NCBI GenBank assembly: GCA_965221455.1
Contig: OZ244890.1
Coordinates: 283,031 to 347,030 of the forward strand
Reading direction: 5' to 3'
Length of the DNA: 64,000 bases
Origin: Gammaproteobacteria bacterium
Lineage (GTDB): Bacteria > Pseudomonadota > Gammaproteobacteria > Eutrophobiales > Eutrophobiaceae
In this document: in pieces, positions 32,412 through 53,832 of the stretch
Layout of the letters: the number at the start of each line of letters is the position of its first letter
Numbering within the stretch: position 1 is the stretch's first letter
Position numbers and translations under genes: made by a program
Notes under the pieces: generated by a model
The model's database searches: none
What the model was told of the DNA's origin: nothing
Seen by the model: the letters and a program-made list of their open reading frames with translations, nothing else

Positions 32412-32666
32412 ACGTCCGCTCTCAATGCCGGCAGTACATTCACAATAACGTGTATATCGTGGACAGATAGCAGCGCAGCGCGTGTCCTTGATGCTGCATT
32501 GCCGACACGCCTGCCGACAGCAGGTCTGACCTGAACGGCAATGACCTGGTTCACACTCGGCGACGGTCGTCGCAACGGGCGAGCCATCTCGTCATCCGTA
32601 ACAGTCATGGTTACGGCAGAGGATGCGCCAGCCACCCATGAAAACAAACTTCTATCTATTGACCCA

Positions 32667-35600
32667 CTACCGCAAGAGTGCCTCGATATTCGTCCTTACC
32701 TCATTGAACGATGGATTGCCCGGAATGGTATCGAGCAGGCCCACCGTGTCGCGAATACCAAACAGATAGCGGCCCAGCAAGAGTCCGTCACTCTGGTTAG
32801 GATCACCACCGCTGCCATCCACGTCAAGACGACCGCTGGCGAAAGCTCCCGCAATATTCGTCGTGACCGCATTGAACGAGGGACTCCCCGGAATCGTATC
32901 AAGCAAGCCCGCCGCATCACGAATACCAAACAGGTAGCGGCCCAGCAAGAGTCCGTCACTCTGGTTAGGATCACCACCGCTGCCATCGACATCAAGACTC
33001 ACCGCCGCCATCTCCGTCACCGTCACCGTTACGGTGGCCGCCGTGACGGTACGATAGTTGGTGTCGGTACTGGTCACCGTATGCGTGAGTTGCACGGTCT
33101 CGTCGTCTGTATCAGCGTCTTCCACTCCCGTCACGGTGATGGTTTTGGCGGTATTCCAGTCGGTGGTGCCAAACATCAGTGAGGTGGGACTCACCGTCAC
33201 AGCAGCGGCATTGGATTGGGTCACGCTAATCGTCACTGCTTCCGTCGGTGGGGTATTCAAGCGCAGCGTATACATGCCGGTACCTCCACGTTCATGGACT
33301 GTCAGCGTCGTGGAACTCACAGCCACGCCCGGCGTGTCGTTATCATTCAAGGTCACAGCGACGGGATCTATCGTCACGCCACTGGCATAGTCGGCATCTG
33401 TGCTTGTCGCCGTATGCGTGAGTTGCACGGTCTCGTGGTCTGTATCCGTATCCTCAACACCACTCACGGTCACCGTTTGGGCACTGTTCCAGTTGTCTGT
33501 GGTAAACGTCAGTGAGGTGGCACTGAGGGTCACTGCAGTGGTATCGGGATTGGTCACCATAATCGTCACCGGTACGGTCGGTCGCTTGGTCAACGCCAGT
33601 GTATAGGTGCCACTGCCAGCTTCGTCGACCGCCAGCGTGGTCGGACTCACGGTCACGCCCGCCGTCTCATCATCATCCACCGTCACCGCCACCGCACTTA
33701 TCGTCACGGTACCCCCATTGTAGCCAGGGTCGGTACTGGTCGCCGTATGCGTGAGTTGCACGGTCTCGTCGTTCGCATCCGTGTCCTCAACACCACTCAC
33801 GGTCACCGTCTGGACACTGTTCCAGTTGTCTGTGGTAAAGGTCAGTGAGGTGGCACTGAGTGTCACCGCCGTGTCATCGGGATTGCTCACGCTAATCGTC
33901 ACCGGCGCCGTCGGTAGGGTAGACAGGCTTAAACCATACTCGCCGGTCTCACCCTCATTGACCGCCAGCACGTTCAGACTCACGGTCACGCCCGCCGTGT
34001 CGTTATCCGTGACATTCACGGTCACGGCGGGCGGGGTCAGCGCGGCATAGGTCGCATCGCTGCTGCGCACCGCATGGGTCAGTTGCACGCTCTCGTGGTT
34101 CGTATCAGCGTCCTCAATAGCCATTACCGTCACCCTCTGCGGCATATTCCAGTTGCTCGTGCTAAAGTCCAGGCTGGACGGGGTCGCCGGACTCACCGTC
34201 GCCACATCGGCATTGAACGTTTGCGGCAGAATGCTCACGGTCGCCGATGGTCGGCTACCCAGTCGGATGGTATAGGTCGCCGTGAGTCCCTCAGTCACAG
34301 TCAACGTGGTCGGACTCAGCGTAACACCCACCATATCGTTATCTGTTATGGTGATGGCTGGACCGGGAAACACAACCGAGTCGTAAGCTCCGTCGCCGCT
34401 GCCGACATCCGGAAAATTCAGCACCACCGTCTCATCATCTACATCGTCATCCTCAACAGCGGTCACCGTTACCGTCTGCGGGATGTTCCATTGGCGGGTG
34501 GTAAAGGTCAGGCTGATCGGACTCACGGTCGCAGCATTTCTATTGCTGCTTCCTATAGAGAAAATTTCCACCGACCCTGTCGGTTCAGTCGCCAACCTTA
34601 CCGTAAACCCGACAGTCTCGCCCTCATTGAGCACCAGCGCGGGCGGACTCACGACGATACCCGCCGCGCCGTTATCCGTGACACTCACGGTCACGGCGAG
34701 CGGCGTCACCCCGGCATAGCCCGTATCAGCGCTGCTCAGCGCATGACTCAGTTGCACGCTTTCGCTGGTCGTATTCGCGTCCTCAACAGCCGTCACGGTC
34801 ACGGTTTGGGCGGCATTCCAATTGACTGTGGTAAAGGTCAGTGGTGAGGTCACGGTCACCGCAGCATTGTCACTGGTCACGCTAATCGTGACCGCGTGCG
34901 TCGGTAGGGTATTCAAGCGCAGCGTATACTCGCCGGTCCCGCCTTCAAAGACCGCCAGCGTGGTCGTACTCATGGTCACGCCCGGCGCGTCGTTATCCGT
35001 GACATTCACGGTCACAGGGGGCGAGTTCACCCCGGCATAGCGCGTATCGCTGCTGCTCAGCGCATGGCTCAGTTGCACACCGCTCTCGCTGGTCCTGTTA
35101 TTGTCCTCGGCACCCATCACCGTCACCGTCTGCGCCTGGTTCCAGTTATTCCTGGTAAAGGTCAGCGACGCAGTGGCGGTGACGGCGGGATTGTCACTGC
35201 TCACGCTAATCGTGACCGCGTGCGTCGGTAGGGTATTCAGGCGCAGCGTATACTCGTTGGTCTCGCCCTCATTGACCGCCAGCGTGGTCGTACTCACAAT
35301 CACGTTGGCATCGTTATCCGCGACATTCACGGTCACGGGGGGCGGCGTCAGCGCAGCATAGTTCGCATCACCGCCGCTCACCGTATGGGTCAGTTGTACG
35401 CCGCGTTCGTTGGTCGCATTCGCGTCCGCAGCACCCGTCACGCTCACGGTTTGGGCGGCATTCCAGTTGATTGTGCTAAAGGTCAGGGTCGCTGGGCTCA
35501 CGGTCACCGCAGCATTGTCACTGCTCACGGCAATCGTCACCGCCACCGTCGGTCGGCTGCCCAGCACCAGCCCATAGCCGGTGCTGCTGCCCTCGGTCAC

Positions 35601-38231
35601 ATTCAGCGCGGTCGGCGACACCCGCACACCCGCCACCGGGCCTACCGGGTCGGACGTCAGGCTATCGCCTCCCGCATTCGGATAACTCGCCATCACGCGC
35701 AACCAACTGCCTATCTGTGATTGGTCTGATGCAATGGTGTACGTGGCGGTATTGTTCGTCCCCGGTGCGGCGGTAAACGGTCCCGCCGAGGCGGTCGCTG
35801 TCTGCCATTGATATGTAATGGTGCCGACATCGGTATTGGGTGAGGCGTCCGCGTCGGTGACCGACCCCGCCGTCAGTGTGACGCCGACTCGGGCAGTGCC
35901 GGTGAGTGTGCCGATGGCACCGCGACGGTCAGCCCGCACGATATTGGAGAACAGGGTGTCGTTGAAATCCCCGCTCTGGGTGACCCGCACCCGCAGCCAG
36001 TTGCCCTGGTCCGCCGCTTGTACCGTGTAGGTCGCCGCCGTGCCGCCCGGGCTGATAGCTGTTGCACTGCTACAGTTTTGAGTGGTGCAGCGTTGCCATT
36101 GCCGGGCGCTGATATTGACGGTCAACCCGGGATGGCTCAGCGCACCGGCGGTCAGGATATCGCCGACATTGGCCGGGGTGTTGGGGGTACTGTCCTGGAT
36201 GGCGCCTAATGACACGAGCGTCGCATCATGAATATGGTTGTCGGTGGCACTCAGTGCACCGATGGCTTGTTTGGTGATAGCTGCGGCACCGGCCCCGATA
36301 TTGCACAGCGACGAGCTGGTTTGTACGGTTTGTTCGGTGTCGGTCGTGGTCCCTGAGCGCACTCCTAAATCACCGCTGGCGTTACATAAAGTGTCCAATA
36401 AGACCACGCCGTTGTTGGCGGACGGTCGGTAAAACAAGACGCCCGGCCCCGGGATAGCGGTCCATGAGGGGTTCGGACGGGACAGGCCGGACTTCAGGCT
36501 TATACTCTCGAAGAGTGTGCCGGTGCTCGGGGTCGCCTGCCCGGTTGTGATGTGATTATTGATACTTACAGTATCTGCTCTACCGGGGTATTGAACTACC
36601 GTGAGTTGCAACCGACCATCGTTCTCGCGGACGAGTATCGCGCCTGTGATGTCAGCCCCGTTTCTCTCCGTCGCATTGGTATACCCGGCCGGGCCGTTGA
36701 CGAGATAGTTCCTCCAAAAGATCAGATTCGGACGGGTCTCGGTGCCCCCGTGGTTGGTGGTGTCGGTGTCGTAGGCATTGGCACAATGGCTGCCCGCCCC
36801 GGCATTACAGGTGCGTGTCTGGTTCTTGTCGGTGATATTGCCCGCACTCCAGGCGCCCCAGCCGTCGTCGTGGTTTATACCAGAATCTGCCGCCGCTATA
36901 GACTGCTTGGTGAGGTCGTAGGGAGTGGATAGACACAGGTCTCGCAGACCTGGGTGTGTTGTTGTTGTTACTTGTGTCGTGGCGGACTCACGCAACATTA
37001 CGTTGACGGACGTACAAGAAATTTGCGTGATTACTTCACCGTTACTGGCTATAGACAGCCTGCCTGATCCTGGAATAGCGGCGAAGCCGCTGTTAAACGG
37101 ATTGTGCCAGTCGTTGTCGCCTGCATTCCAGGCGGCGAGGAAGTTGGCGAAGGCCGGGAACGCCCTGAGTAGGGTGGTTCGGAAAGGGACCGACAAGTTG
37201 AGGGGTCCTGACTGCCGGTCATACCACGCCTCCAGCGTGGTCGGGCTGATAATCGCCGACATGTCTAGCGGCCTCCACCCGCCGGTCGGATGCCCGGACT
37301 CCGGGTATAGGACCGGATTGGTGCCTTCCGGGCAGGGGGTGTTCGGGCCGGGAGTGCCGACGACGTTGACACTGCACCTCCGCCGGGTCGTCACGGTCTC
37401 ATTATTGATTGACCCGGTGTAGGTGTACGATGCCGTATCCGGTGCTTCTGCGTACATCGGGGTATTGAAATCACGATGTAGTAGTGATGTGCCGATACTG
37501 CCTGCGTTGTATGTATTGACCACCGCTTGCGGGGTATGGCAGCGGGCGTCTCTTTGCACTGTTGTTCTCTCCGGGCGGAGCAGGCTGCCAGTGCCGCCTC
37601 CCTCAATATAGGACTGCGGGTGGCTGTTGTTTCTGCGGCAGCGGACGGTGAATGCTTGCCCGTCTGCGTCATAGACGGTGACCGTGACGTTCAGTCTTGG
37701 GTTGCGCACTCGTCGGGCGATGTTAATAGGACCAATAGAGGTCGTACCATTCACCATAGTAGCATTGCAAAACTCGCTTACGATATCGTCAGTAATCTCG
37801 CCATCTGTGCTGCAATTGTCGTGGGTACCAGAAAAGCCCCAGTTGTCGCCCGCAGGGGTATGACCTAGATTCCCCGCAGTACCACTATGATCGTCGTGGA
37901 CAGCGCTGCTACGTATGAACCAGGGCACGACGACCACATTGTTGCCGACCTGGACGTTGTATCGCCCGTTCAGGAAGGCAAAATTGGAGATGCCGTCACC
38001 ATCTGCGGAGCGGCTTGTGAGACCGCCGCCCAGATTATACCTGTGGCCGCTACCGCCTGTATCCGGGATGATGTAATTGGCGTCGGGTACCCCCGCCACC
38101 CGAAAACTGTCCGCAAGCGGAGCCGTCGCCAGTGCCGCCGGGCTTACCCATGCCGTCATTAGGGCGACGGCGGCTATCATCCCGCGCCAAGACCCCGACC
38201 GTTCGGCGGTTGACCGCAGTTGCCTCGTCAT
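32667..38231 (-). CDS. Giant secreted multi-repeat protein A. Order: signal peptide, ~750-aa Cys-containing N-terminal region, 2 Ig-like modules, ~10 Calx-beta/cadherin-like repeats, tandem dockerin-type C-terminal pair
   Basis: The open frame runs 32667..38624 (1985 aa). A signal peptide MTRQLRSTAERSGSWRGMIAAVALMTAWVSPAALA begins at M132 (ATG 38229-38231). Upstream of that the frame reads HHAPRTT repeats encoded by a heptamer SSR, so it is likely untranslated. The repeats have the form VTVSPTTLxVxEG..TYTLxL...PTxxVTIxV...TFTTxNWNxAQTVTVxGVEDxDxxDE.VQLTH with acidic linkers such as VTDNDTPG and VTVDDDETAG. The C-terminus is LDVDGSGGDPNQSDGLLLGRYLFGIRD twice, a dockerin-like calcium-binding loop plus helix. 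GC3 is very high compared with flanking genes. Confidence 0.8.
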   Translation of the reverse strand: MTRQLRSTAERSGSWRGMIAAVALMTAWVSPAALATAPLADSFRVAGVPDANYIIPDTGGSGHRYNLGGGLTSRSADGDGISNFAFLNGRYNVQVGNNVVVVPWFIRSSAVHDDHSGTAGNLGHTPAGDNWGFSGTHDNCSTDGEITDDIVSEFCNATMVNGTTSIGPINIARRVRNPRLNVTVTVYDADGQAFTVRCRRNNSHPQSYIEGGGTGSLLRPERTTVQRDARCHTPQAVVNTYNAGSIGTSLLHRDFNTPMYAEAPDTASYTYTGSINNETVTTRRRCSVNVVGTPGPNTPCPEGTNPVLYPESGHPTGGWRPLDMSAIISPTTLEAWYDRQSGPLNLSVPFRTTLLRAFPAFANFLAAWNAGDNDWHNPFNSGFAAIPGSGRLSIASNGEVITQISCTSVNVMLRESATTQVTTTTHPGLRDLCLSTPYDLTKQSIAAADSGINHDDGWGAWSAGNITDKNQTRTCNAGAGSHCANAYDTDTTNHGGTETRPNLIFWRNYLVNGPAGYTNATERNGADITGAILVRENDGRLQLTVVQYPGRADTVSINNHITTGQATPSTGTLFESISLKSGLSRPNPSWTAIPGPGVLFYRPSANNGVVLLDTLCNASGDLGVRSGTTTDTEQTVQTSSSLCNIGAGAAAITKQAIGALSATDNHIHDATLVSLGAIQDSTPNTPANVGDILTAGALSHPGLTVNISARQWQRCTTQNCSSATAISPGGTAATYTVQAADQGNWLRVRVTQSGDFNDTLFSNIVRADRRGAIGTLTGTARVGVTLTAGSVTDADASPNTDVGTITYQWQTATASAGPFTAAPGTNNTATYTIASDQSQIGSWLRVMASYPNAGGDSLTSDPVGPVAGVRVSPTALNVTEGSSTGYGLVLGSRPTVAVTIAVSSDNAAVTVSPATLTFSTINWNAAQTVSVTGAADANATNERGVQLTHTVSGGDANYAALTPPPVTVNVADNDANVIVSTTTLAVNEGETNEYTLRLNTLPTHAVTISVSSDNPAVTATASLTFTRNNWNQAQTVTVMGAEDNNRTSESGVQLSHALSSSDTRYAGVNSPPVTVNVTDNDAPGVTMSTTTLAVFEGGTGEYTLRLNTLPTHAVTISVTSDNAAVTVTSPLTFTTVNWNAAQTVTVTAVEDANTTSESVQLSHALSSADTGYAGVTPLAVTVSVTDNGAAGIVVSPPALVLNEGETVGFTVRLATEPTGSVEIFSIGSSNRNAATVSPISLTFTTRQWNIPQTVTVTAVEDDDVDDETVVLNFPDVGSGDGAYDSVVFPGPAITITDNDMVGVTLSPTTLTVTEGLTATYTIRLGSRPSATVSILPQTFNADVATVSPATPSSLDFSTSNWNMPQRVTVMAIEDADTNHESVQLTHAVRSSDATYAALTPPAVTVNVTDNDTAGVTVSLNVLAVNEGETGEYGLSLSTLPTAPVTISVSNPDDTAVTLSATSLTFTTDNWNSVQTVTVSGVEDTDANDETVQLTHTATSTDPGYNGGTVTISAVAVTVDDDETAGVTVSPTTLAVDEAGSGTYTLALTKRPTVPVTIMVTNPDTTAVTLSATSLTFTTDNWNSAQTVTVSGVEDTDTDHETVQLTHTATSTDADYASGVTIDPVAVTLNDNDTPGVAVSSTTLTVHERGGTGMYTLRLNTPPTEAVTISVTQSNAAAVTVSPTSLMFGTTDWNTAKTITVTGVEDADTDDETVQLTHTVTSTDTNYRTVTAATVTVTVTEMAAVSLDVDGSGGDPNQSDGLLLGRYLFGIRDAAGLLDTIPGSPSFNAVTTNIAGAFASGRLDVDGSGGDPNQSDGLLLGRYLFGIRDTVGLLDTIPGNPSFNEVRTNIEALLR

Positions 38232-38541
38232 ACCCGTGAGCGTGTACGTTTTTGCCTCTTGATGCAGGCGGTGCTGTGGAGTATTGCGCGGGTCGCCGTC
38301 AACGCAGCGGGTGTTGCTTCTGTTGCGGTCCGCCAACGCTTCGCTCAAGCGGCGGTTCCAGCACGCTACCTTGCCGTGGATCTGTGGACGGCATCCATGC
38401 GTCAGAGGATGCAGAACCTTATGTCGGGCACTCCCTCCATCCACGGTCACGCATGCGGTGCGTTCGGTCATGGACCAGTTATGCCGGGGCCTGGTGGCGC
38501 AGCGGTCTGCGTGAGTATTGCGGTGGTGGCACCACTTCCAC

Positions 38542-38599
38542 GTGGTGCGTGGTGCGTGGTGCGTGGTGCGTGGTGCGTGGTGCGTGGTGCGTGGTGCGT
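38542..38599. repeat. Heptanucleotide simple sequence repeat (GTGGTGC)x8.3, perfect
   Basis: Read directly from the sequence: cgtGGTGCGTGGTGCGTGGTGCG...gtt. It lies ~310 nt upstream of the probable start of giant gene A, just downstream of a TTGACA-18nt-TAGACT promoter-like element. The unit length is not a multiple of 3. The equivalent site upstream of gene C (~51035-51050) has only an unexpanded gtggtggtg-like remnant. Confidence 0.9.
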
Positions 38600-38601
38600 T
38601 A

Positions 38602-38631
38602 AGTCTAAGTCGTTTTGTCAACATATGTCAA
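38602..38631 (-). promoter_or_regulatory. Putative sigma70-type promoter for giant gene A (-35 TTGACA, 18-nt spacer, -10 TAGACT)
   Basis: The minus-strand sequence is cTTGACAtatgttgacaaaacgacTTAGACTtaa, followed immediately by the heptamer SSR. The homologous stretch upstream of gene C has a degenerate -35 (ACGACA/CTGACA). This is pattern-based only. Confidence 0.3.
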
Positions 38632-39205
38632 GTTCTCTCTAGTCAGTCATCCAGATTGCTATGCTGTCAATTGTACCATTATCCGCGCAGTATTAAATAC
38701 ATCATATCGTGCACCACACCACATATGGCACTGTTTGTTGTGATTGATCATGTACTGTACAGGTCGTGAACAATCCCGGCTCTTTGTGAGAGGCGTATGC
38801 TGTTGTATTTGATTCGCCCATCCGCCGGTTTTTGGTTCAACCGATTGAGCGCTGCAAACCGTCAGTCTTCGTGAATGTCGAGAACGCCTCTGCTTCGGTA
38901 CTGTTGACCGGTAGGCCCACCCAACCTTGCGCACGGTGCGCTTTCCGGCGACTGTTACCGCTGTGGCTCAGGGGCGGCGGGCAAACCCTGTGTCTCCCGG
39001 AGTTGCAGCACACGCAGACGCTGTGCCGCCATTGCATTGTGCATCCCCGCTTGTATCGCTTGACACCCGAGACGATAAACACTCTCAAGCCGATAAACCG
39101 GGTGCCGAGATTACACCCGTCTTTATCCTGCAATGTTGTTGCCGAACTGATACCGCCAGGCCTCTGCAAAGCCTGTGCAATGAACGGTCTGTCTATTGAC
39201 CCACA

Positions 39206-42200
39206 CTATCGCAAGAGTGCCTCGATATTCGTCCTTACCTCGTTGAACGATGGATTGCCCGGAATGGTATCAAGCAGGCCTACCGTATCGCGAATACCAA
39301 ACAGGTAGCGGCCCAGCATGAGACCGTCACTCTGGTTAGGATCACCGCCGCTGCCATCCACGTCAAGACGACCGCTGGCGAAAGCTCCCGCAATATTCGT
39401 CGTGACCGCATTGAACGAGGGACTCCCGGGAATCGTATCAAGCAAGCCCGCCTCATCACGAATACCAAACAGGTAGCGGCCCAGCATGAGACCGTCACTC
39501 TGGTTAGGATTACCGCCGCTGCCATCCACATCAAGACTCACCGCCGCTGTCTCCGTGACCGTCACAACCAGGGCGGCCGTCACGGCACGATAGGCGGTGT
39601 CCATACTCGTCACGGCATGACTCAGTTGTACGCGCTCGTCGTCCGTATCAGCGTCCCGGACACCCATCACCGTCACCGTTTGGGCACTGTTCCAGTTGTC
39701 CTCGGTAAAGGTCAGCGTCGCCGTCACCGTCACCGCATCTGTATCAGGACTGCTCACCGCAACCGTCACCGCCGCACTCGGCCGACTGGTCAACACCAGC
39801 ATATAGGTGCCGGATCCGCCTTCTCCCACCGTCACCCGGCCCGGCGTCAGCGTCAACCCCGCCGTATCATCATCATTCACCGTCACAGACACCGCCGCCG
39901 CCGTCACGGCAGCATAAGCAGTGCCGGTACTCGTCACAACATGACTCAGCTGCACACCGCTGGCGTCATTCGCATCAGCATCCTCAACACCCATCACCGT
40001 CACCGTCTGCGCTGTGTTCCAGTTGTCCTCGGTAAAGGTCAGCGTCGCCGTCACCGTCACCGCCGCCGTATTAGCACTGCTCACCGCAATCATCACCGCC
40101 GCATCCGGCTGGCTGGTCAACGCCAGCATATAATTGCCGCTACCGCCTTCCAAAATCGTCAGCGCGGTCTGACTCACCGCCACGCCCGCTGTATCATCAT
40201 CTCTCACCGTCACATCAACAGCGGCTATCGTCACCGCACCAGCATTGTAGGCGCTATCCGCACTTGCCGACGTATGGCTCAGCCTGACACTTGCATTGTT
40301 CGTATCACCATCCTCAACACCCGTCAGCGTCACTGTCTGGCCCCGGTTCCAGTTGTCCGTGGTAAAGGTCAGGGTCGCCGGACTCGCGGTCGCCCCGGCG
40401 GTATTGCCATTGCTCACCGTCACCCTCACCTCGTCCGTCGGTCGGGTATTTAATACCACCATATAGCTGCCGGTACCGCCTTCATCAATCGTCGGGTTCG
40501 TCGGAGCCACGGTCACGCCCGCCACGTCGTTATCCGCCACGGTCACCGGGAGCGTCGTCGTCACCGCACTGCCGTTGTAGGTACTATCCATGCTGGTCGC
40601 CATATGCGTCAAAAGCACCGTCTCATTGATCCCGTTCGCATCCTCAACCGCCACCACCCTCACCGTCCGGGCCTGGCTCCAGTTGCTTGTCGTGAACATC
40701 AGCGGGGTGCTGCTCACGGTCGCCGCAGCGGTATTGTCACTCGTTACCATAATCGTCACATCGTTGCGCGGCCGGGTCGCCAGCGCCAGCGTATAGCTGC
40801 CCGTGTCGCCTTCACCCACCGTCAACCTGCCCGGCACCACGGTCATACCCGCGATATCATCATCCGTCACTGTCACATCGACAGTGCCTATCGTCAACGC
40901 ATTAGCATTATAGGCAGGATCCGCACTCACTGCCCTGTGACTCACTATGATGCTTGCATCGTTTGCATCAGGGTCCTGGACACCACGCACTGTCACTGTC
41001 CTGGCCGTGCGCCAGTCGCTGGTGGTAAAGGTCAGACTCGTCGGACTCGTGTTTACCACACCACTATTGGGGATCAACAAGTCCACCGTCACAACGGCGA
41101 CCGGTCGACTGGTTAGCGCCAGCATGTAGGTGCCACTACCGCCTTCAGGGACCCTCAGCGTAGACGGCATTACCGTCACACCCGCCGTCTGGATATCTTC
41201 CACAGTCACGGTGACAGCGTTTATCGTCACCGCAGGAGTACCTGCATAGGCAGGACCGCCGCCGTTAAACGTATGCGTCAGGGAGACGGTCTCGTCGTTC
41301 GCATCAGCATCCGCAACACCCATCACCGTCACCGTCTTGGCCGTGTTCCAGTCGTCCATGTCGAAGGTCAGCATCGCTGGACTCACCGACGCCGCTTCAG
41401 CGTCGTCAGTCATCACCGTAATCGTCATTGCCGCCGTCGGCCGGGTATCCAACACCAGCGTATAGGTGTTGTTGTTCGTGCCCTCATTGAACGTCAACGA
41501 GGTCTCACTCACCGTCACGCCCGCCGTCTCGTTATCATCCACAGTCACGCTGACATCGGCTATCGCCACAGCATTACCGTTATAGGTATTATCCGTGCTG
41601 CTCGCCGTATGCGTGAGTTGCACATCAACTTCGTTGTTCGCGTCAGCATCCTCCTCTCCCGTCACTGTAAACGTCTTACCCGTGTTCCAGTCGCTCGTGC
41701 TAAAGGTCAGTGTTGTCGGGCTGACCGACACCGCACCCATGTCACCACTCCCCACCGTAATCATCACGGCATGCGCCGGTTGGGTATTCAACATCAGCAT
41801 ATACTCGACGTTAGCACCTTCGGCGACCTCCAGCCTGGTGGGACTCACGCTCACACCCGGCGTATCGTTATCGCTCACGTTCACGCTGACCGCAGCCGGC
41901 ATCACCGCATTATAGGCGATGTCGCTACTGCTAACTGTATGAGTCAGGCTCGCACGCTCGTTGGTCGAGTTCGCATCTTCAGCACCCGACACGGTGACGA
42001 TTTGTGGTATATTCCAACGGTCTCTGGTAAACATCAGCGGCGTGGCACTGACTGTCGCAGCCTCGTTGTTGCTCGCTACGGTTATCATTACAGCAGTACT
42101 CGGCTGGCTGCCCAAAACCAGCATATAGGTACCGGTACCCCCTTCACTCACGGCCAAGGTGTCAGTACTTACGTTGACGCTTACCATTTCATCATCTGTC

Positions 42201-44938
42201 ACGGTCACCGTAATGCTCACCGCAAGAGCGAGATAACCGGGATCGGCACTGACGGTGCCCAGCCTCAGCGCCACCGTCTCATCGCTTGCATCAGCATCCC
42301 CGATGCCGGTCACCGTCAACGTTCGGGCGATATTCCAATTGGTTTCGTTAAAGGTCAGGCTCGGCGACGGGGTGACGGTCGCAATCGCGGTATCCGCGCT
42401 TTCGATGAGCACAACAACCGGGTGTGTCGGTCGGCTGTGGAGCCTCAGGGTCAACGTGCCCATCTCACCTTCTTTCACGTTGAGTTCAGTCACCACGTCA
42501 AGACCTGCCATGTCGTTATCCGTCAAGTTCACCATCACATCATCCGGCGTCAAGGTGCCATAGCGGGCGTCTGTACTGCTCACCCGATGACTCAGGCGCA
42601 CGCCGCTTTCACTCACCGCATCCACATCCTCAACTCCCATCACCGTCACCGTCTGCGGCATGCTCCAGTTGTCAGAGGTAAACATTAACGGCGACGTCGC
42701 GGTCGCGGCACTGATATCGTCACTACGCACCGTAATATTTACCGCAGCACTCGGCGGCGCATCCAGCACCACGGTATAGTCACCCGTGCCGCCTTCAGCC
42801 ACGGCCAGCGTGGTCAAACTCACCGTCACACCAGGAGACGGCACTTCGTCATCCGTCACCGTCACGGCGACGCTGCGGGCGACTCCATCATAGTTAAGGT
42901 CTGTACTCGCACTATTCAGCGTCAGGCTCACGCTCTCATCCCTGGCGTCAGCATCTTCAACCGCCATCACCGTCACCGTGCGTGGTTGATCCCAGTCGGC
43001 GCCGCTAAACACAAAGTCCGATGGACTGATGCTCACGGCGCCATCATCGGGATTCGAGATGACCATGGAGACAATATCCGTCGGCAGGCTATTCAGGACT
43101 ACCGTGAACGTGTTGTTGCCGCCTTCGGCAACGGTCAACGCGGTCGTGCTCAGCCTCACGCCCGCCGTATCGTTATCCGTCGTGTTGACCACCACAGGGA
43201 AGATGCTGACATCATTGTAATCGTTATCCATGCTGCTCACGGTGTGACTCAGGCGCACGCGCTCGTTGCTGGCATCGGTATCCTCCACGCCGGTCACGGT
43301 CACGGTGCGGGCGACATTCCAATTGGTCGTGGTAAACGTCAACGAGGAAGTCACCGTGACGGCGTCCTGCGCGTCACTGGTCACCATCACGGTCACCGCG
43401 GCACTCGGCCGGGTATTCAATTCCAGCGTATACATACCGGTCGACCCTTCGGCCACCGTCAGCAGGGTCGCACTGACCGTCGCCCCTGCCACTTCGTTAT
43501 CCGTCACCGTCACCGTCACGGTGCCACTGTTATCATCACGGCCAGCATTCGTCACCGTCACCGCCACACGGTTATAGCTGCTATCCATGCTGGTGACCGT
43601 ATGACTCAGGCGCACGCTCTCATGGTCCGAGTCGGCATCCTCAACGCCCGTCACCATCACCGTCTGCACCGTATTCCAGTTATCTTCGGTAAACGTCAGC
43701 GAGGGGGTCGCGCTCACCGCTTCCGGATCGCCACTCGTCACCGCTACCGTCACATCAGCACTCGGCAGGGTATCCAGTACAATGCGATAGCCACCGGTGT
43801 TACTTTCGCCGACCGCCACAGTGGCCGGGGTCACCGTCACACCGACTGTCTCTCTATCCATCACGGTCACATTGACAGGCGAGAATGTCTTACCACTATA
43901 GTCGCCGTCTGTGCTCGCGGTCATATGACGCAGGCGTACTGTCTGGTCGCGTGCATCAGGATCTTGCGCACCGTTCACGGTCACCGTCTGCGCCCGATTC
44001 CAGTTATTCCTGCCAAAGGTCAGGCTCGTTGGACTCGCGGTCGCAATATTCGAATCGTCACTCACTACCATCACTGTTACAGCGTGACTCGGTTGGCTGC
44101 CTAAAGCTAACATGTAGGTGCTGTTGCTACCTTCGTCGACAGTCAAACTGGACGGCACCAGCGTCACACCCACCACTTCGTCATCCGTCACGGTCACAGT
44201 CACAGGATCCGGTGCGAAACCACGGTAGGTAGTATCTGTAGTGGTCACCGTATGGTTCAGGCGCACGGTCGCGTCATTCGCATCTCCATCATGGATACCC
44301 GTCACCATTACCGTCTGGACAGTGAACCAGTTGACGGAGGTAAACATCAGACTCGCCGGGGTCACCCTCGCGGCACCAGTATTGGTACTTGTCACGGCAA
44401 TATTGACATCCTCTGTCGGCGGGCTATTTAGCCTGACAGTATAGTTACCCGTGGCACCTTCATTAACAGTCGGCGTGCTGGAGCTGAACACCACACCAGG
44501 CTGCGCCTCGTCATCTATCACGACTGCGGTTATGTTCTGGTTTGCAGTCGAAGAACTGTTGAAGTTAGTGTTACTACCTTCTGTACGAAATCCCAGACTC
44601 ACCATCTCATGGTTCCCATCAGCATCCTCAATAGCGCGCACCGTCACCATTTGTGCTACATTGGTAGGAACATTGAACATCAGGCTCGCAGGAGTCACTG
44701 TCACGGCATTAGTGTTTCCACTCATCGGTAAAAAGTTTACAGTGCCTGTCGCACCACCAGAGTCTATGGAAACCTGGTAGGTGGCGGTTGCGCCTTCTGC
44801 AATAGTCAGCACACGATCAGCAGTGCTTTGGACGGTCACGCTAAGCTGCGCGAACACCGGAGTGGTAAAAAAACAGCTTAACGCTGCCAAGCGCAGCAAA
44901 TTCAGAACAGAGAGACGACCCGTCATGTTATTCAGCAT
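39206..44938 (-). CDS. Giant secreted multi-repeat protein B. Order: signal peptide, ~16 Calx-beta/cadherin-like repeats, tandem dockerin-type C-terminal pair; no large N-terminal domain
   Basis: The 1910-aa ORF starts MLNNMTGRLSVLNLLRLAALSCFFTTPVFAQ (signal peptide) and goes straight into ~110-aa repeats. Its C-terminal ~110 aa are almost identical to gene A, including ...DTIPGNPSFNEVRTNIEALLR*. It contains a block (41595..41915) nearly identical to part of gene C (47610..47930). Confidence 0.85.
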   Translation of the reverse strand: MLNNMTGRLSVLNLLRLAALSCFFTTPVFAQLSVTVQSTADRVLTIAEGATATYQVSIDSGGATGTVNFLPMSGNTNAVTVTPASLMFNVPTNVAQMVTVRAIEDADGNHEMVSLGFRTEGSNTNFNSSSTANQNITAVVIDDEAQPGVVFSSSTPTVNEGATGNYTVRLNSPPTEDVNIAVTSTNTGAARVTPASLMFTSVNWFTVQTVMVTGIHDGDANDATVRLNHTVTTTDTTYRGFAPDPVTVTVTDDEVVGVTLVPSSLTVDEGSNSTYMLALGSQPSHAVTVMVVSDDSNIATASPTSLTFGRNNWNRAQTVTVNGAQDPDARDQTVRLRHMTASTDGDYSGKTFSPVNVTVMDRETVGVTVTPATVAVGESNTGGYRIVLDTLPSADVTVAVTSGDPEAVSATPSLTFTEDNWNTVQTVMVTGVEDADSDHESVRLSHTVTSMDSSYNRVAVTVTNAGRDDNSGTVTVTVTDNEVAGATVSATLLTVAEGSTGMYTLELNTRPSAAVTVMVTSDAQDAVTVTSSLTFTTTNWNVARTVTVTGVEDTDASNERVRLSHTVSSMDNDYNDVSIFPVVVNTTDNDTAGVRLSTTALTVAEGGNNTFTVVLNSLPTDIVSMVISNPDDGAVSISPSDFVFSGADWDQPRTVTVMAVEDADARDESVSLTLNSASTDLNYDGVARSVAVTVTDDEVPSPGVTVSLTTLAVAEGGTGDYTVVLDAPPSAAVNITVRSDDISAATATSPLMFTSDNWSMPQTVTVMGVEDVDAVSESGVRLSHRVSSTDARYGTLTPDDVMVNLTDNDMAGLDVVTELNVKEGEMGTLTLRLHSRPTHPVVVLIESADTAIATVTPSPSLTFNETNWNIARTLTVTGIGDADASDETVALRLGTVSADPGYLALAVSITVTVTDDEMVSVNVSTDTLAVSEGGTGTYMLVLGSQPSTAVMITVASNNEAATVSATPLMFTRDRWNIPQIVTVSGAEDANSTNERASLTHTVSSSDIAYNAVMPAAVSVNVSDNDTPGVSVSPTRLEVAEGANVEYMLMLNTQPAHAVMITVGSGDMGAVSVSPTTLTFSTSDWNTGKTFTVTGEEDADANNEVDVQLTHTASSTDNTYNGNAVAIADVSVTVDDNETAGVTVSETSLTFNEGTNNNTYTLVLDTRPTAAMTITVMTDDAEAASVSPAMLTFDMDDWNTAKTVTVMGVADADANDETVSLTHTFNGGGPAYAGTPAVTINAVTVTVEDIQTAGVTVMPSTLRVPEGGSGTYMLALTSRPVAVVTVDLLIPNSGVVNTSPTSLTFTTSDWRTARTVTVRGVQDPDANDASIIVSHRAVSADPAYNANALTIGTVDVTVTDDDIAGMTVVPGRLTVGEGDTGSYTLALATRPRNDVTIMVTSDNTAAATVSSTPLMFTTSNWSQARTVRVVAVEDANGINETVLLTHMATSMDSTYNGSAVTTTLPVTVADNDVAGVTVAPTNPTIDEGGTGSYMVVLNTRPTDEVRVTVSNGNTAGATASPATLTFTTDNWNRGQTVTLTGVEDGDTNNASVRLSHTSASADSAYNAGAVTIAAVDVTVRDDDTAGVAVSQTALTILEGGSGNYMLALTSQPDAAVMIAVSSANTAAVTVTATLTFTEDNWNTAQTVTVMGVEDADANDASGVQLSHVVTSTGTAYAAVTAAAVSVTVNDDDTAGLTLTPGRVTVGEGGSGTYMLVLTSRPSAAVTVAVSSPDTDAVTVTATLTFTEDNWNSAQTVTVMGVRDADTDDERVQLSHAVTSMDTAYRAVTAALVVTVTETAAVSLDVDGSGGNPNQSDGLMLGRYLFGIRDEAGLLDTIPGSPSFNAVTTNIAGAFASGRLDVDGSGGDPNQSDGLMLGRYLFGIRDTVGLLDTIPGNPSFNEVRTNIEALLR

Positions 44939-45505
44939 CAGTTATTCCACCATCAGTTCTACAACGATTGATAATATCCCACATTAATTAACGTCATGCG
45001 CTCCCACTGGCAAACCTACCGTTTACCATGTTCATCACCTTCACATCCACGCTGTTTGATATTCGACCAGCGACCGCTGATCGTTGCACGACCGACTACA
45101 GACTGCTGAGCGTACCAGAAAAACACACAATAACTCAAGACCTAATCAATGCTTCTCCGAACGTTTCACGTTTTCACCCATCCCTGATTGATGTCAAGAC
45201 ACTTCTTTTGAAGTCGATGACCTGCAAACCTGCAGCTCAGGATTCCGCCTCCGAGAGGTCATCATTTTTGGCAACGTACACCCGTCTGCAATCGGCGATA
45301 TTTTTTCCTTATTCCCTTGATATTTACAGAAAGCACTACCGGGTTGCTATTATCGTCCGCCAGTCGGTCTATAGCCCAGGAAAGGATACGCGCTGTTAAT
45401 TCGGTACATGTTGCTTGAAATTTTCAATCGGCATGGCCGTACTCACAGCAATAAAAAACAATGAGTCAGCCACCCATGAAAAAACAACTTCCGGCTATTT
45501 CCCCA

Positions 45506-48500
45506 CTACCGCACACGCACAAGCGCTCCGATATTCCTCGTTACGTCGTTGAACGATGGATTGCCCGGGATAGTATCAAGCAAGCCCACAGTGTCACGAA
45601 TACCAAACAGATAACGACCTATCATCAGACCATCACCTTGATTCGCAGCACCGCCGCTGCCATCCACATCAAGACGACCGCTGGCGACAGCCCTTGCAAT
45701 ATTCGCCGTGACCACACTGAACGATGGACTCCCCGGGATAGTATCAAGCAAGCCCACCATATCACGAATACCGAACAGGTAGCGGCCTATCATAAGCCCG
45801 TCACCCTGGTTAGGTGCACCGCCGCTATTATCCACATCAAGACTAATCGCCAGCTCCGTGACAGTCACAAGCACGGCGTCTGGCGTCACCGCAGCATAGC
45901 CTGTATCAGTGCTGCTCACCGTATGCGTTAGCCTGACGCTCTCATTGTCCACATCAACGTCCTCAACACCCGTCACCGTCACCGTCTGGACCCTGTTCCA
46001 CTCGTCTATGGCAAAGGTCAGAGTCGCAGGACTCACCGTCGCCTCAGTCGCATCAGCACTCGTCACCGCAATCCTCACCTCCGCACGCGGCTGGCTGGTC
46101 AACACCAGCGTATAGGTCCTGGTATCATTTTCGGTAACGCTCAGTGTGGTAGGAGTCACCATCACGCCTGCCGTCTCGTCATCATTCACCGTCACGGTGA
46201 CAGCGTCTATCGTCACCGCAGGGTTAGCATCTGCATAGGCAGGTCCGCCGCCGCTAAACGTGTGCGTCAGAGAGACGCTCTCGTTGTTCGCATCAAGATC
46301 CTGCTCACCCGTCACCGTCACCATCTTTGGCGTATTCCAGTCGTCCATGGCAAAGGGCAGTGTCGCTGGACTCACCGACACCGCTCCATCATCGTCAGAC
46401 ATCACCGTAATCACCATCGCCGCCGACGGCTGGGCATCCAGCACCAGCGTATAGGTGGTGGTGTTCGTGCCCTCATCGAACATCAGCTCGGTCTCACTCA
46501 AAGTCACGCCCGCCGTCTCGTCATCATCCACCGTCACAGTGACCCCGGCTATCGTCAAAGCAGGGTTAGCATCTGCATAGGCAGGACCGCCGCCGCTAAA
46601 CGTGTGCGTCAGAGAGACGCTCTCGTTGTTCGCATCAGCATCCGCAATACCTGTCACCGTCACCGGCTTCGGCGCGTTCCAGTCGGCCATGGTAAAGGTC
46701 AGCGTCGCTGGACTCACCGATGCCGCTCCCTCGTCGTCAGACATCACCGTAATCACCATCGCCGCCGTCGGCTGGGTATCCAACACCAGCGTATAGGTGG
46801 TGTTGGCCGTGCCTTCATTGAACATCAGCTCGGTCTCACTCAAAGTCACGCCCGCCGTCTCGTCATCATCCACCGTCACGGTGACCCCGGCTATCGTCAA
46901 AGCAGGGGTGGCATTTGCATAGGCAGGTCCGCCGCCGCTAAACGTGTGCGTCAGAGAGACAGTCTCGTTATTCGCATCAGCATCCTCAACACCCGTCACC
47001 GTAAACACCTTGGGCGTATCCCAGTCGCCCATGGTAAAGCTCAGTGTCGATGGACTCACCGACGCCGCTTCAGCGTCGTTACTCATCACCGAAATCGTCA
47101 TATCCGCCGACGGCTGGACATCCAGCACCAGCGAATAGGTGGTGTTGGTCGTGCCCTCATCGAACGTCAGGTTGGTCTCACTCACCGTCACGCCCGCCGT
47201 CTCGTCATCATCCACCGTCACGGCGACCCCGGCTATCGTCAAAGCAGGGGTGGCATCGGCATAGGCAGGTCCGCCGCCGCTAAACGTGTGCGTCAGAGAG
47301 ACAGTCTCGTTGTTCGCATCAGCATCCTCAACACCCGTCACCGTAAACGTCTTGGGCGTATCCCAGTCGCCCATGGTAAAGCTCAGTGTCGATGGACTCA
47401 CCGACGCCGCTTCAGCGTCGTTACTCATCACCGAAATCGTCATATCCGCCGACGGCTGGACATCCAGCACCAGCGTATAGGTGTTGTTGTTCGTGCCCTC
47501 ATTGAACATCAACTCGGTCTCACTCACCGTCACGCCCGCCGTCTCGTCATCATCCACCGTCACGGAGACAGCGGTTATCGCCACCGCATTACCATTATAG
47601 GTATTATCCGTGCTGCTCGCCGTATGCGTGAGCTGCACATTGACTTCGTTGTCCGCGTCAGCATCCTGCTCTCCCGTCACCGTCACCGTCTTACCCGTGT
47701 TCCAGTCGGCCGTAGTAAAGGTCAGTGTTGTCGGGCTGACCGACGCCGCACCCATGTCGCCACTCGCCACCGTAATCATCACGTCCGCCGCCGGTTGGGT
47801 ATTCAGCATCAGCATATACTCGACGTTAGCACCTTCGGCGGGCTCCAGCCTGGTGGGACTCACGCTCACACCCGGCGTGTCGTTATCCCTCACGGTAACG
47901 GCCACAGTAGTCAGCATCAACGGTCGATAGAGCACATCGCTGCTATTATCCACTGTATGCGCCAGGCTGACGTTTCCGTCGGTCGCATTACTATCCTCAA
48001 CACCCATCACCGTCACCGTCTTGGCCGTGTTCCAGTCAACATTGGTAAAGGTCAGTGATGTCGGGCTGACCGTCGCCGCTCCCGTGTCGCCAGTCGCCAC
48101 CACCATAATCGTCACATCCGTCATCGGCCGAGTCTCCAGCATCAGCGTATAGCCGCCGCTACCGCCCTCACTGACCTCCAGCGTGGACGCATTCAAAGTC
48201 ACGCCCGCCGTGTCGTTATCATCCACATTAACGGTGACACCAGCTATCGTCACCGCATTACCATTGTAGGTCGCATCCGTGCTCTCCGCCGTATGCGTGA
48301 GCCGCACACTGACTTCGTTGTTCGCGTCATCATCCTGCTCACCCGTCACCGTCACCATCCGGGCCACGTTCCAGTTAGCACCGGTAAAGGTTAGTGTTCC
48401 CGGGTTGACCGACGCCGCATCCGCGTCGCCACTCGCCACCGTAATCACCACGTCATTCGCTGGCTGGCTGGTCAACATCAGCGTATAGATGCCGGTCTCT

Positions 48501-50770: not shown

Positions 50771-51500
50771 CTCGCGCCGAACTCCTGGCCCGCTGGCAAG
50801 TTCGGCGGTCGACCGCAGTTTCCCCGTGATGCCCGCAAAAGTGTACGCTTTTGCATAGTGATAGCGCATGTGCAGTGAGGTGTTGCGCCTATCGCCGTCA
50901 ACGCAGCGGGCGATGCCACGGTGCTTGCGCGTCAGACGATGCAGAATACCGTGTTGTGTACACAACACGTCCGCAGCAACGTGCGCTTCACATTCGGTCA
51001 TGACAATGTTAAGCCTGTGTCTGGTGGAGGTGTGGTGGTGGTGCTTGTCGCACGACACCAGCGTGGTGGTAAGGCGTTTACGTAATTTTGTCAGCATATG
51101 TCGTGTTCTCTCTCGTAAGTAGTCCAGATTTACCCCCACATACCCATCCCGCCCGTGACTGTTTCCAGTCCCCGCTGTGGACAGTTAGTTGAAGTGGATG
51201 CTATTATAGCCAACAGATACCTCGATTGATACCACTATCCGATACCCATGCGCCCAGGCGCCCAGGCGCGGTGGTGAGGGCAAAATCGGATACAGATACG
51301 AATGATGGGTACTTGAGTCTGAGCTATCGTGTCCAGTGAAGACCTTGAACGGCAACAATATCACCATTCCCTGCTGTCGCCGTCGTGCTATCACGAAATC
51401 GGAACGGCGGGCAGGAATCCGAAAATTTCGCCAGCAACGCCACCGCACGTAATATTCCGGCAGTATCTTTTTTTCAAGATGCCGTGTCGCATGGACCGGG

Positions 51501-53058: not shown

Positions 53059-53832
53059 ATGTGTCGCCTCGCCGCTTATTTAGGCCCTGAGATATCACTC
53101 GGCAAGTTTCTGATGGAGCCCGGGCACAGCCTTTATCGCCAGTCCTGGGAGCCAAGGGAAATGGACGGAGCCGTGCTTAATGCCGATGGCTTTGGAATCG
53201 GCTGGGTTAATGCGTCGCGACGGACCGCTATTTATACCAACACGCAACCGATATGGTCGGATACCAATCTGACAGGCCTGTCAGATTCACTGTACAGCAG
53301 CTATTGGTTGGCAAATGTACGCAGTGCGACACCAGGTCAACAAATCACACAGACCAATACGCACCCTTTCAGAGTCAACCAATGGTTATTCACCCACAAC
53401 GGCTATATTGAGAATTTTGACCTGAAAATCCGGACAATCCTGCATGATGTTTTAGATGCTTCAATACAGGCGGGTATTCAGGGTAATACAGATTCGGAGT
53501 ACTTGTTTGCATTACTGCGACAGCAGTTATCCCGGACTTCAGATGTCGCTCAGGCTTTTCGAGGCATGCTGTCCACACTCTCTGAAATCATTACGGATGA
53601 AACGGTATTATTAAATATCATCATTGGTGATGGATCGCAGTTTCACGTTCTCCGACATGCAATCAACGGCAAGTGTCCCACGCTTTATTTCAGCATCAGT
53701 GAAGATGATTTTCCGGAGGCTGTTATTATCGCTTCCGAAGCCTTAAGCAACTCCGGGAAATGGCAGTCCGCTCCCGAACACAGTTACTGCACGATATGTA
53801 AAAATATCACACCCGATTTCATTGCACTGTGA
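53059..53832 (+). CDS. Class II (Ntn) glutamine amidotransferase, EgtC-like
   Basis: The 257-aa ORF begins MCRLAAYLG, with Cys2 as the nucleophile as in EgtC/YafJ-type GATases. Its stop overlaps the next gene's GTG start (GTGA), which suggests translational coupling. Confidence 0.65.
   Translation: MCRLAAYLGPEISLGKFLMEPGHSLYRQSWEPREMDGAVLNADGFGIGWVNASRRTAIYTNTQPIWSDTNLTGLSDSLYSSYWLANVRSATPGQQITQTNTHPFRVNQWLFTHNGYIENFDLKIRTILHDVLDASIQAGIQGNTDSEYLFALLRQQLSRTSDVAQAFRGMLSTLSEIITDETVLLNIIIGDGSQFHVLRHAINGKCPTLYFSISEDDFPEAVIIASEALSNSGKWQSAPEHSYCTICKNITPDFIAL

Follow-up and report, generated by a model that had tools for sequence, protein, structure and literature searches.

A divergent dockerin-like module at the ends of three giant secreted proteins in a gammaproteobacterial genome

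Translation of a 64,000-nucleotide stretch of gammaproteobacterial DNA (contig OZ244890.1, positions 283,031 to 347,030; hereafter the window) revealed three giant open reading frames on the minus strand, genes A, B and C, each encoding a secreted repeat protein that ends in an internally duplicated module of ~110 aa (2 x 56 aa, 112 residues). On balance, we lean towards reading this terminal module as a divergent, enlarged docking or anchoring module of the dockerin/EF-hand superfamily. The module belongs to an unnamed family, an extended double-F-hand module defined by two alignments (A1 and A5), which has no Pfam or NCBIfam model of its own.

Architecture of the three giant genes

The features of the three genes, with repeat arrays delimited by jackhmmer self-search, are as follows.

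32667..38624, minus strand: gene A ORF, 1985 aa
35613..38231, minus strand: gene A N-terminal part, signal peptide MIAAVALMTAWVSPAALA and ~820-aa Cys-rich region
32997..35612, minus strand: gene A, 8 tandem ~106-aa Ig-like (Calx-beta-like) beta-sandwich repeats (aa 1005-1876)
32670..32996, minus strand: gene A C-terminal module (aa 1877-1985), unit 1 at 32829-32996 and unit 2 at 32670-32828
32925-32993 and 32757-32825, minus strand: gene A loop and helix segments DVDGSGGDPNQSDGLLLGRYLFG
39206..44938, minus strand: gene B ORF, 1910 aa
39536..44938, minus strand: gene B signal peptide MLNNMTGRLSVLNLLRLAALSCFFTTPVFA, then 16 tandem Ig-like repeats (aa 42-1801)
39209..39535, minus strand: gene B C-terminal module (aa 1802-1910), unit 1 at 39368-39535 and unit 2 at 39209-39367
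39464-39532 and 39296-39364, minus strand: gene B loop and helix segments
45506..51139, minus strand: gene C ORF, 1877 aa
45842..50770, minus strand: gene C from the Met at 50770, signal peptide MTAVMVAVALMAAWASPAARA, ~620-aa N-terminal region and Ig-like repeats
45842-48850, minus strand: gene C, 9 Ig-like repeats (aa 764-1766)
45509..45841, minus strand: gene C C-terminal module (aa 1767-1877), unit 1 at 45674-45841 and unit 2 at 45509-45673
45770-45838 and 45602-45670, minus strand: gene C loop and helix segments DVDNSGGAPNQGDGLMIGRYLFG and DVDGSGGAANQGDGLMIGRYLFG

The true start of gene A is probably the Met at 38231 or 38180, and its putative Sec-type signal peptide was called by eye. A CACCACG repeat lies upstream of this gene. 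The ~820-aa Cys-rich region that follows gave no match in a Pfam scan, and the homolog search found its homologs confined to the same 2.5-Mb contig; the ~620-aa N-terminal region of gene C is homologous to it.

One Ig-like repeat of gene A was modeled by AF2 with seven strands (pLDDT 93.7), and the best TM-scores of this model were to the Calx-beta CBD domains of NCX1/CALX (2dpk, TMq 0.72; 3rb7_A, 0.71). Foldseek returned no match to the repeat model at E<=1e-3, and the Pfam scan of the giant proteins gave no significant Calx-beta match, only a summed sub-threshold fn3_6 signal. Cohesin was rejected as an identity for these repeats, which lack a Pfam Cohesin (PF00963) match and form a 105-aa seven-strand sandwich in contrast to the nine-strand cohesin jelly roll; the cohesin 6kgf_A reached a TMq of only 0.50 against the repeat model (E=7e-3) and ranked below the Calx-beta domains.

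Sequence anatomy of the terminal module

Each 56-aa unit consists of a D-x-D-x-S-G loop, the stretch DGLLxGRYLFG and then ~30 residues. A six-frame scan of the whole window for DVD[GN]SGG...DGL[LM][LI]GRYLFG located exactly six instances, two per gene, and none outside the ends of genes A, B and C. Translation and motif scan together confirmed an earlier sequence-only reading, in which tandem D-x-D/N loop segments had been placed at the C-termini of all three giant proteins. What had then been taken for a ~30-aa linker is the second half of the 56-aa unit and recurs after the second segment. At the DNA level, Tandem Repeats Finder reported a period of 168 nt in 1.9 copies (88% matches) at 32686-32998 and 39225-39537.

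The modules of A and B, described earlier as nearly identical with C as a diverged variant, do share 96% protein and 95% DNA identity, whereas the gene C module is ~80% identical to both (80% in nucleotides). Units 1 and 2 of the window modules are 78-83% identical to each other, as against ~50% in typical family members. The helix-entry Asp of the window copies lies at loop position 13, not 12, and the loops are atypical for the family, with Ser at position 5, Pro or Ala for Asp at position 9 and Gln for Leu at position 11; altogether they depart from the family pattern at positions 5, 9, 11 and 12. Ca2+ binding is therefore less certain in the window copies than family-wide.

Predicted fold and relation to dockerins

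The AF2 model of the gene A module (pLDDT 91.4, pTM 0.84) is all-helical, with six helices over 112 aa that comprise two loop-helix units and extra helices. Coil at residues 1-14 leads into a helix at 15-25 and coil at 57-70 into a helix at 71-81, while no helix enters the first loop. Only two of the five models were confident (pLDDT 91.4, 90.5, 67.5, 58.3 and 47.5), and the input alignment comprised only 13 sequences, which weakens the case. Structure prediction, proposed beforehand as a check, returned the two loop-then-helix units in the gene A module. A Foldseek search of the PDB with the module model gave no significant match.

Profile searches of the PDB placed dockerins nearest to the family. 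The A1 profile retrieved 1ohz_B (E=1.3e-3), and the A5 profile retrieved 4uyq_B, 4uyp_B, 1ohz_B, 8x39_A and 2ccl_B at 5e-4 to 2e-3, with calmodulins as a second tier at ~0.3. Dockerin_1 was the sole recurrent Pfam match of the family (7/13, 9/48 and 4/63 members; best 8.3e-12), and the full-length member P0012 scored 36.8 bits on it against a gathering cutoff of 22.9; weak EF-hand_1 matches were found in 5/13 members. HMMER alignments of the family to dockerins require a one-residue gap.

The window copies themselves were not matched by Dockerin_1 (PF00404) even at E<=10, one of the outcomes that had been named beforehand as speaking against a dockerin. The modules of A, B and C do contain two tandem F-hand segments, but the window copies lack the 12-residue loop with ligands at 1, 3, 5, 9 and 12, and the module is not a compact three-helix fold of ~60-70 aa. 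The proposal of a type I dockerin was accordingly upheld in its duplicated Ca-loop and helix units and in the nearest relatives being dockerins, but not in the Dockerin_1 match or the loop spacing, which is 13; nor was the resemblance to the dockerin consensus "residue for residue", as the loop is longer by one residue. The term type I dockerin overstates the evidence. Given the missing Dockerin_1 match, the 13-residue spacing and the failure to find a cohesin, a cohesin-dockerin assembly can at most be conjectured.

A widespread family of terminal modules

An HMM built from 10 metagenomic relatives, without any window sequence, matched the modules of A, B and C over their full length with 48, 48 and 45 bits (E ~1e-7 to 1e-6, scaled to 1.8 billion sequences); the similarity is not due to chance. 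The window copies also share with the family the two ~56-aa units, the 13-residue loop and the D-G-L-L-x-x-R-Y-L-F-G helix, and are C-terminal on proteins with Sec-type signal peptides. The family comprises 6,428, 4,381 and 968 clusters (50% identity) at E<=1e-3, 1e-10 and 1e-30, respectively. A loop spacing of 13 was observed in 391/423 and 121/133 family segments, and the A-L-T-D-G-L-L core is strongly conserved over many taxa. One member, P0010, combines a canonical 12-residue dockerin segment and a 13-residue family segment in a single module.

Carriers of the module are mainly secreted proteins, mostly from marine Gammaproteobacteria; the marine bacteria include SAR92/Porticoccaceae, Cellvibrionales, Thiotrichaceae and Methylococcales. 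Its passengers span more than 90 different Pfam families, among them S8, M12 and C13 peptidases, CotH, glucoamylase, GSDH, beta-lactamase-fold, FG-GAP, cadherin, CARDB and TSP3 domains, on proteins of 145-7086 aa. The module is terminal family-wide. Among metagenomic proteins, it ends <=15 residues from the C-terminus in 222/287 full-length copies. Of the genome ORFs, scanned with a three-sequence alignment as profile, about half have it at the very C-terminus and most others near the N-terminus.

Most family members have no Pfam or NCBIfam annotation in the module region, and direct scans of the A, B and C modules against Pfam and against NCBIfam, with its sorting domains, gave no match. In the searchable literature, neither the motif nor the 2 x 56-aa architecture with its 13-residue loop was found described.

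Paralogs and the search for a partner

The search for further module-bearing ORFs, also suggested at the outset, proved productive: at least eight proteins of this genome carry the module, one of them without Ig repeats, and their modules are 76-97% identical. The word-indexed homolog search is non-exhaustive, and its first run missed near-identical paralogs that were later recovered. All eight paralogs have the atypical, lineage-specific loop variant. Between A and B, nucleotide identity is 95% in the module and 62% in the remainder of the protein; across the paralogs compared, it is 95% or 80% in the module, 60-68% in neighboring domains and ~50% past the stop codon. The high conservation of the module could reflect gene conversion instead of selection for a common partner. 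Related genomes likewise have several module copies each, often on adjacent genes, and the complete genome of Porticoccaceae nBUS_09 (CP179212.1) is among those rich in them.

Pfam Cohesin was absent from A, B and C, from 20 neighboring proteins in the window and from the neighbors at 76 related loci (~1 Mb). When all ORFs of these 76 loci were clustered, no conserved partner gene emerged, and only syntenic housekeeping genes (SDR, acyl-CoA dehydrogenase, CIA30 and QueA) were recurrent. Cohesin is not among the Pfam families that recurrently co-occur with the module, and a single sub-threshold match (E=0.0037) was seen in member P0013.

Possible function and alternative explanations

A modular docking role is supported by the breadth of passenger families, the occurrence at either terminus, the multiple copies per genome, the conservation among paralogs and the symmetry of the two units. 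In each unit, an acidic 13-residue loop, D-x-D-x-[SND]-G, leads into the predicted DGLLxxRYLFG helix, with two more predicted helices after it. We propose that, following Sec export, the two loops may bind Ca2+ and thereby fold the module, which might then dock its passenger onto a common receptor on the cell surface or in a matrix. The passenger here would be a long Ig-like/Calx-beta-like stalk, with or without an N-terminal head, and docking could tether and organize all the proteins, eight or more, that bear the module in this genome. Such a receptor need not be a cohesin. A bolder version of this proposal, which we regard as unlikely, is that the module represents an unrecognized, widespread docking system of marine Gram-negatives, parallel to cohesin-dockerin, in which a non-cohesin receptor serves dozens of exoenzymes and adhesins; here the giant proteins themselves might supply the receptor through their Ig-like/Calx-beta-like repeats, such that A, B and C would serve both as self-assembling scaffolds and as cargo.

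Possible, if less probable than docking, is a Ca2+-dependent folding, stabilizing or matrix-binding domain that has no dedicated protein receptor and either contacts LPS or exopolysaccharide via Ca2+ bridges or simply folds only after leaving the cell. The acidic, EF-hand-like loops, the concentration of the family in marine, Ca-rich habitats and the lack of a conserved partner gene nearby are consistent with it. Whereas recognition residues of cellulosomal dockerins are species-specific, the A-L-T-D-G-L-L core is conserved over many taxa, as would suit a shared non-protein ligand or a purely structural role. However, a stabilizer would not be expected on >90 unrelated passenger families and at either terminus, and the loop variant common to all eight paralogs suggests co-adaptation with a lineage-specific factor.

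It is doubtful that the module is a canonical type I dockerin that binds a scaffoldin with cohesin domains, encoded at another site of the genome, as part of a cellulosome-like surface scaffold. The dockerin hits at the top of the PDB searches, the members that pass Dockerin_1, the faint Cohesin signal in P0013 and the high internal symmetry of the window module, which recalls dual-binding-mode dockerins, favor this idea; the unmatched window copies, the 13-residue loop, the larger fold (six helices over 112 aa, where a dockerin has three over ~65 aa) and the absence of Cohesin from the giant proteins, the window and the related loci examined, as well as from the recurrent co-occurring families, weigh against it.

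Far less credible is a role as a C-terminal signal for secretion or sorting (T1SS/RTX signal, T9SS CTD, exosortase or rhombosortase tag), which would account for the C-terminal location in most metagenomic copies and in all three window genes. About half of 104 complete genome ORFs have >100 residues, often >500, after the module, and the majority of these ORFs have it near the N-terminus; the module is therefore no terminal export tag. The window proteins also have N-terminal Sec-type signal peptides, show no transmembrane tail, RTX nonapeptides or match to an NCBIfam sorting domain, and are accompanied by no T1SS, T9SS or sortase genes within the window; the module is all-helical in AF2, whereas the T9SS CTD is a beta-sandwich. 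This candidate was therefore rejected. So was the reading as another type of calcium repeat, for instance thrombospondin type 3, or as a chance D-x-D-x-D-G match, which we consider highly improbable: several family proteins also contain TSP3 repeats and D-x-D-G motifs are common, but the module has no TSP_3 or TSP3_bac match, confident helices follow its loops where TSP3 forms a non-helical Ca-wire, and the entire 112 aa, not the loop alone, match the independent family profile at E~1e-7.

Should the module serve for docking, it would be a targeting handle common to thousands of secreted enzymes and adhesins, from proteases and glycosidases to CotH kinases and cadherin/Ig adhesins, in abundant marine bacteria. 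Its receptor would then explain how Gram-negative heterotrophs hold exoenzymes at the cell surface, and the two together would offer a new orthogonal binding-module pair for protein engineering. At a minimum, the family merits its own profile, since most members, the window copies included, escape the current models of Pfam and NCBIfam.

Comparison with known systems

The nearest solved relatives of the module are type I dockerins (PF00404), for example 1OHZ_B of C. thermocellum Xyn10B, 4UYQ_B of A. cellulolyticus ScaB and the double dockerin 8X39. In both, a Ca-type loop occurs in internal duplicate, each copy leading into a helix whose hydrophobic face reads L-x-R-Y-L-x-G, and both sit terminally on secreted modular proteins. 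The module differs in a loop longer by one residue, with the helix-entry Asp at 13, in two extra helices per unit, and in its hosts, which are aerobic or marine Gram-negative bacteria rather than cellulolytic Firmicutes. With EF-hand proteins such as calmodulin it shares the D-x-D-x-[DN]-G loop chemistry, but the bidentate Glu at 12 is missing, with Asp at 13 instead, no helix precedes the first loop and the setting is extracellular. The bodies of the giant proteins resemble Calx-beta/Ig-like adhesin repeats in their ~105-aa seven-strand beta-sandwich and in the acidic D-x-D...E clusters where domains join, and differ from Calx-beta in the Pfam result given above.

Non-cellulosomal dockerin-like modules, which Peer and co-workers reportedly surveyed in all three domains of life (FEMS Microbiol Lett, 2009), are similar in being dockerin-related and in residing on non-cellulolytic secreted or adhesin-like proteins whose partners are mostly unknown. 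Dockerin-like ORFs have been described in Saccharophagus degradans (PMC2386152) and cohesin/dockerin adhesins in ANME archaea and their SRB partners (PMC10553843), so that a precedent exists for non-cellulosomal cohesin/dockerin proteins in adhesion (PMC10553843, PMC2386152). The role proposed for such non-cellulosomal modules is surface attachment or cell-cell adhesion.

The C-terminal module of proteins A, B, and C

Three giant secreted proteins of the window, A, B, and C (1985, 1910, and 1877 aa), are encoded by long ORFs that all end in the same module:

32667..38624, minus strand, ORF A: long leader, Sec-type signal peptide, ~820-aa Cys-rich region, eight repeats of ~106 aa, module
39206..44938, minus strand, ORF B: Sec-type signal peptide, 16 repeats of ~106 aa, module
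45506..51139, minus strand, ORF C: Sec-type signal peptide, ~620-aa region homologous to that of A, nine repeats, module

The translations of each protein contain two copies of LDVD[GN]SGGxxNQ[SG]DGL[LM][LI]GRYLFGIRD, exactly as the sequence-only reading had described for these C-termini, and across the whole 64 kb a six-frame motif scan located the motif only at these six places. Tandem Repeats Finder identified a 168-nt unit in 1.9 copies with 88% matches. As the ~30 residues following the first segment recur after the second, the true repeat unit is 56 aa (loop-helix segment plus ~30 residues), and what had been taken for a linker is part of it. The module therefore consists of two acidic loop-helix units in tandem, with DNA identities of 95% between A and B and of 80% between C and each of them. 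An AF2 model (pLDDT 91.4, pTM 0.84), confident in two of five models and based on a shallow alignment, gave for each unit a loop and then three helices, the first of 11 residues, the second short, and the third of 13 residues. Foldseek found no PDB neighbour of this model.

The EF-Tu, L7/L12, TrkA, NtrX, TopA, and RpoB proteins of the window match exactly those of one 2,504,188-bp NCBI/ENA contig, on which five further proteins (P0263, P0265, P0266, P0267, and P0269) carry a terminal module of the window type. They contain 0–19 Ig-like repeats; the one that lacks them has a Spondin_N domain. Together with A, B, and C, the genome thus encodes at least eight module-bearing proteins, all of which share the lineage-specific loop variant GGxPNQSDG. 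The eight modules are 76–97% identical, while the repeats next to them in A, B, and C reach only 60–68% identity in DNA; the module is preferentially conserved among paralogs. On a metagenome contig (L001, 8040-9596), short adjacent ORFs include P0001, also recorded on the 2.5-Mb contig, in which the last part of an Ig-like repeat is joined to one and a half units of the module before the frame is lost; this stretch is a degraded member of the gene family.

Relationship to dockerins

Pfam and NCBIfam scans of the isolated modules of A, B, and C returned no match even at E<=10, including the Dockerin_1 (PF00404) match expected from their reading as type I-like dockerin repeats, and in a phmmer search of PDB sequences the top match was the C. 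thermocellum Xyn10B dockerin, at E=0.36. At the level of the family, the relationship is significant. In an alignment of 13 family modules (A1), D-x-D, D-G-L, and R-Y-x-F-G are invariant in both units, and an HMM built from 10 non-window members scored A, B, and C at 45–48 bits (E 1e-7 to 1e-6 at 1.8 billion sequences), so that their membership is secure. Against the PDB, the top four matches of the A1 profile were all dockerins (1ohz_B at 1.3e-3), and the profile of a broader alignment of 48 modules (A5) was led by seven dockerins (5e-4 to 0.13), with calmodulins coming next at ~0.3. Dockerin_1 was the only recurrent Pfam family among members (best E-value 8.3e-12), matching 7 of 13 members (E<=10), 9 of 48 (E<=0.01), and 4 of 63 full-length proteins (E<=1e-3), with one family member exceeding its gathering cutoff. 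This member, the metagenomic protein P0012 (671 aa), scored 36.8 bits and was the only one examined that lay clearly above the gathering score; its five matched stretches represent several modules in tandem. P0010, another relative, combines a canonical 12-residue dockerin segment and a family-type segment within one module, and bridges the two types. At the level of family profiles, these comparisons show the module to be homologous to dockerin F-hands.

The differences are equally consistent. In the family, the helix-entry Asp stands at position 13 from the first Asp (391/423 and 121/133 segments), and every HMMER alignment to dockerins required a one-residue gap. The predicted structure retains the two loop-helix units, whereas the compact three-helix fold is replaced by six helices in 112 aa. 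Among family members, the window copies are outliers: loop position 5 is Ser, as in 3% of segments, Asp at position 9 is replaced by Pro or Ala, and Leu at position 11 by Gln. Three of six defining features of type I dockerins (profile match, 12-residue loop, and compact three-helix fold) thus failed, and the module is therefore not filed as one. It is related to a dockerin and would work like one.

Distribution and portability of the family

An exhaustive profile search recovered 6,428 clusters (50% identity) at E<=1e-3, 968 of them at E<=1e-30, in proteins of 145 to 7,086 aa that mostly end a few residues after the module. Most members are named "hypothetical protein" and have no Pfam domain over the module, and no NCBIfam model covers it. 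The attached domains are highly varied, with 94 Pfam families among 63 long members. Domains attached in the family comprise TSP3, CARDB, Big_9/cadherin, and FG-GAP, peptidases S8, M12, and C13, and also CotH, glucoamylase, glucose/sorbosone dehydrogenase, alpha/beta-hydrolase, beta-lactamase fold, and beta-propeller, among others. In a marine Pseudomonadales MAG (L049, 9701-12283), an N-terminal eukaryote-type ubiquitin domain (PF00240, E=6.7e-26) precedes first the module and then cadherin domains, a combination unusual for a bacterial secreted protein.

At 76 mostly marine genome loci, 101 module ORFs were found, often as two or three adjacent genes, mainly in Porticoccaceae/SAR92, Cellvibrionales, Thiotrichaceae, and Methylococcales, and less often in Burkholderiales, Magnetococcales, Planctomycetota, and Desulfobacterota. 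No conserved non-housekeeping neighbour gene was found across these loci. In about half of the ORFs, more than 100 residues, and often over 500, come after the module, which then mostly lies close to the N-terminus. The module is thus portable, occurring at either terminus of exported proteins, a placement incompatible with a C-terminal export tag and consistent with an interaction module that can be moved between proteins.

Proteins and genomic setting

The ~106-aa repeat was modelled as a seven-strand beta-sandwich (pLDDT 93.7). Its best TM-scores were to Calx-beta CBD domains (0.71–0.72), compared with only 0.50 to cohesin; no structural match reached E<=1e-3, and Pfam gave only a weak fn3_6 signal on the giant proteins. 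The Cys-rich N-terminal regions of A (35613-38081) and C (48851-50707, both minus strand), 620–820 aa long, have no Pfam match, and their sole homologs are six proteins (63–78% identity), all on the 2.5-Mb contig; they form a lineage-restricted "head" domain. The longest ORFs of A (38232-38624) and C (50771-51139, both minus strand) start ~130 codons upstream of the signal peptide, and this His/Arg/Thr/Cys-rich leader (MLTK...MTERTACVTVDGG...) is conserved in the paralogs P0268 and P0269. This stretch is probably not translated and would be a long, conserved 5' leader of the transcript; it matches no Rfam family.

The three genes are flanked by housekeeping genes, namely def, fmt, DUF4390, an NtrY/NtrX-like pair, trkA, trkH, and a methyltransferase gene on one side, and ampE, ampD, and others on the other. 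GC content is 0.58–0.60 in the block (32500-51300) and 0.43–0.47 in the surrounding chromosome. GC3 is 0.67–0.68 in B and C, against 0.39–0.49 in the flanking housekeeping genes, so the codon usage of the block is foreign, which suggests horizontal acquisition between the trkH-methyltransferase gene pair and ampE-ampD.

A perfect heptanucleotide repeat, (CACCACG) x 8.4 on the coding strand (38541-38599, 100% matches), starts 3 nt past the -10 of the region's best sigma-70-like site, TTGACA-18-TAGACT (38631-38602, minus strand), ~310–360 nt upstream of the signal-peptide Met of gene A. This has the appearance of a contingency repeat subject to strand slippage, by which gene A expression could be switched or tuned. 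Antisense plus-strand ORFs of 257–598 aa within the giant genes (34074-34847, 41273-42688, 42986-44104, and 46262-48058) are most likely by-products of GC-rich repetitive coding sequence, not genes. At 53059-55007, a class-II glutamine amidotransferase gene precedes a DinB_2 plus FGE-sulfatase gene; the two, unrelated to the module, resemble an EgtC/EgtB-type (ergothioneine-like) pair.

Proposed mechanism

We propose that the module would fold in a Ca-dependent manner after Sec export, with Ca2+ held by D1, D3, S/N5, a backbone carbonyl, and D13, and would then dock to a shared receptor, so that the giant proteins with their Ig stalks, along with other cargo, are tethered at the surface. That it binds a non-protein ligand or plays a purely structural role is rather unlikely. 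The assembly with classical cohesins implied by the sequence-only reading is more doubtful still, as the flanking genes in the window include no cohesin; nor do they include a secretion system. A sorting signal is highly improbable, given the many residues past the module in about half of the genomic ORFs.

Non-cellulosomal dockerin-like modules were reportedly described by Peer et al. in 2009. Dockerin-like ORFs are found in Saccharophagus degradans (PMC2386152), and cohesin/dockerin adhesins in ANME-associated SRB (PMC10553843). As non-cellulosomal dockerin-like modules have already been reported, the general idea is not new. A literature search for the module motif gave no match, and the extended architecture is without a model in Pfam or NCBIfam; its 2 x 56-aa, 13-residue-loop organization and very wide distribution appear to be undescribed.
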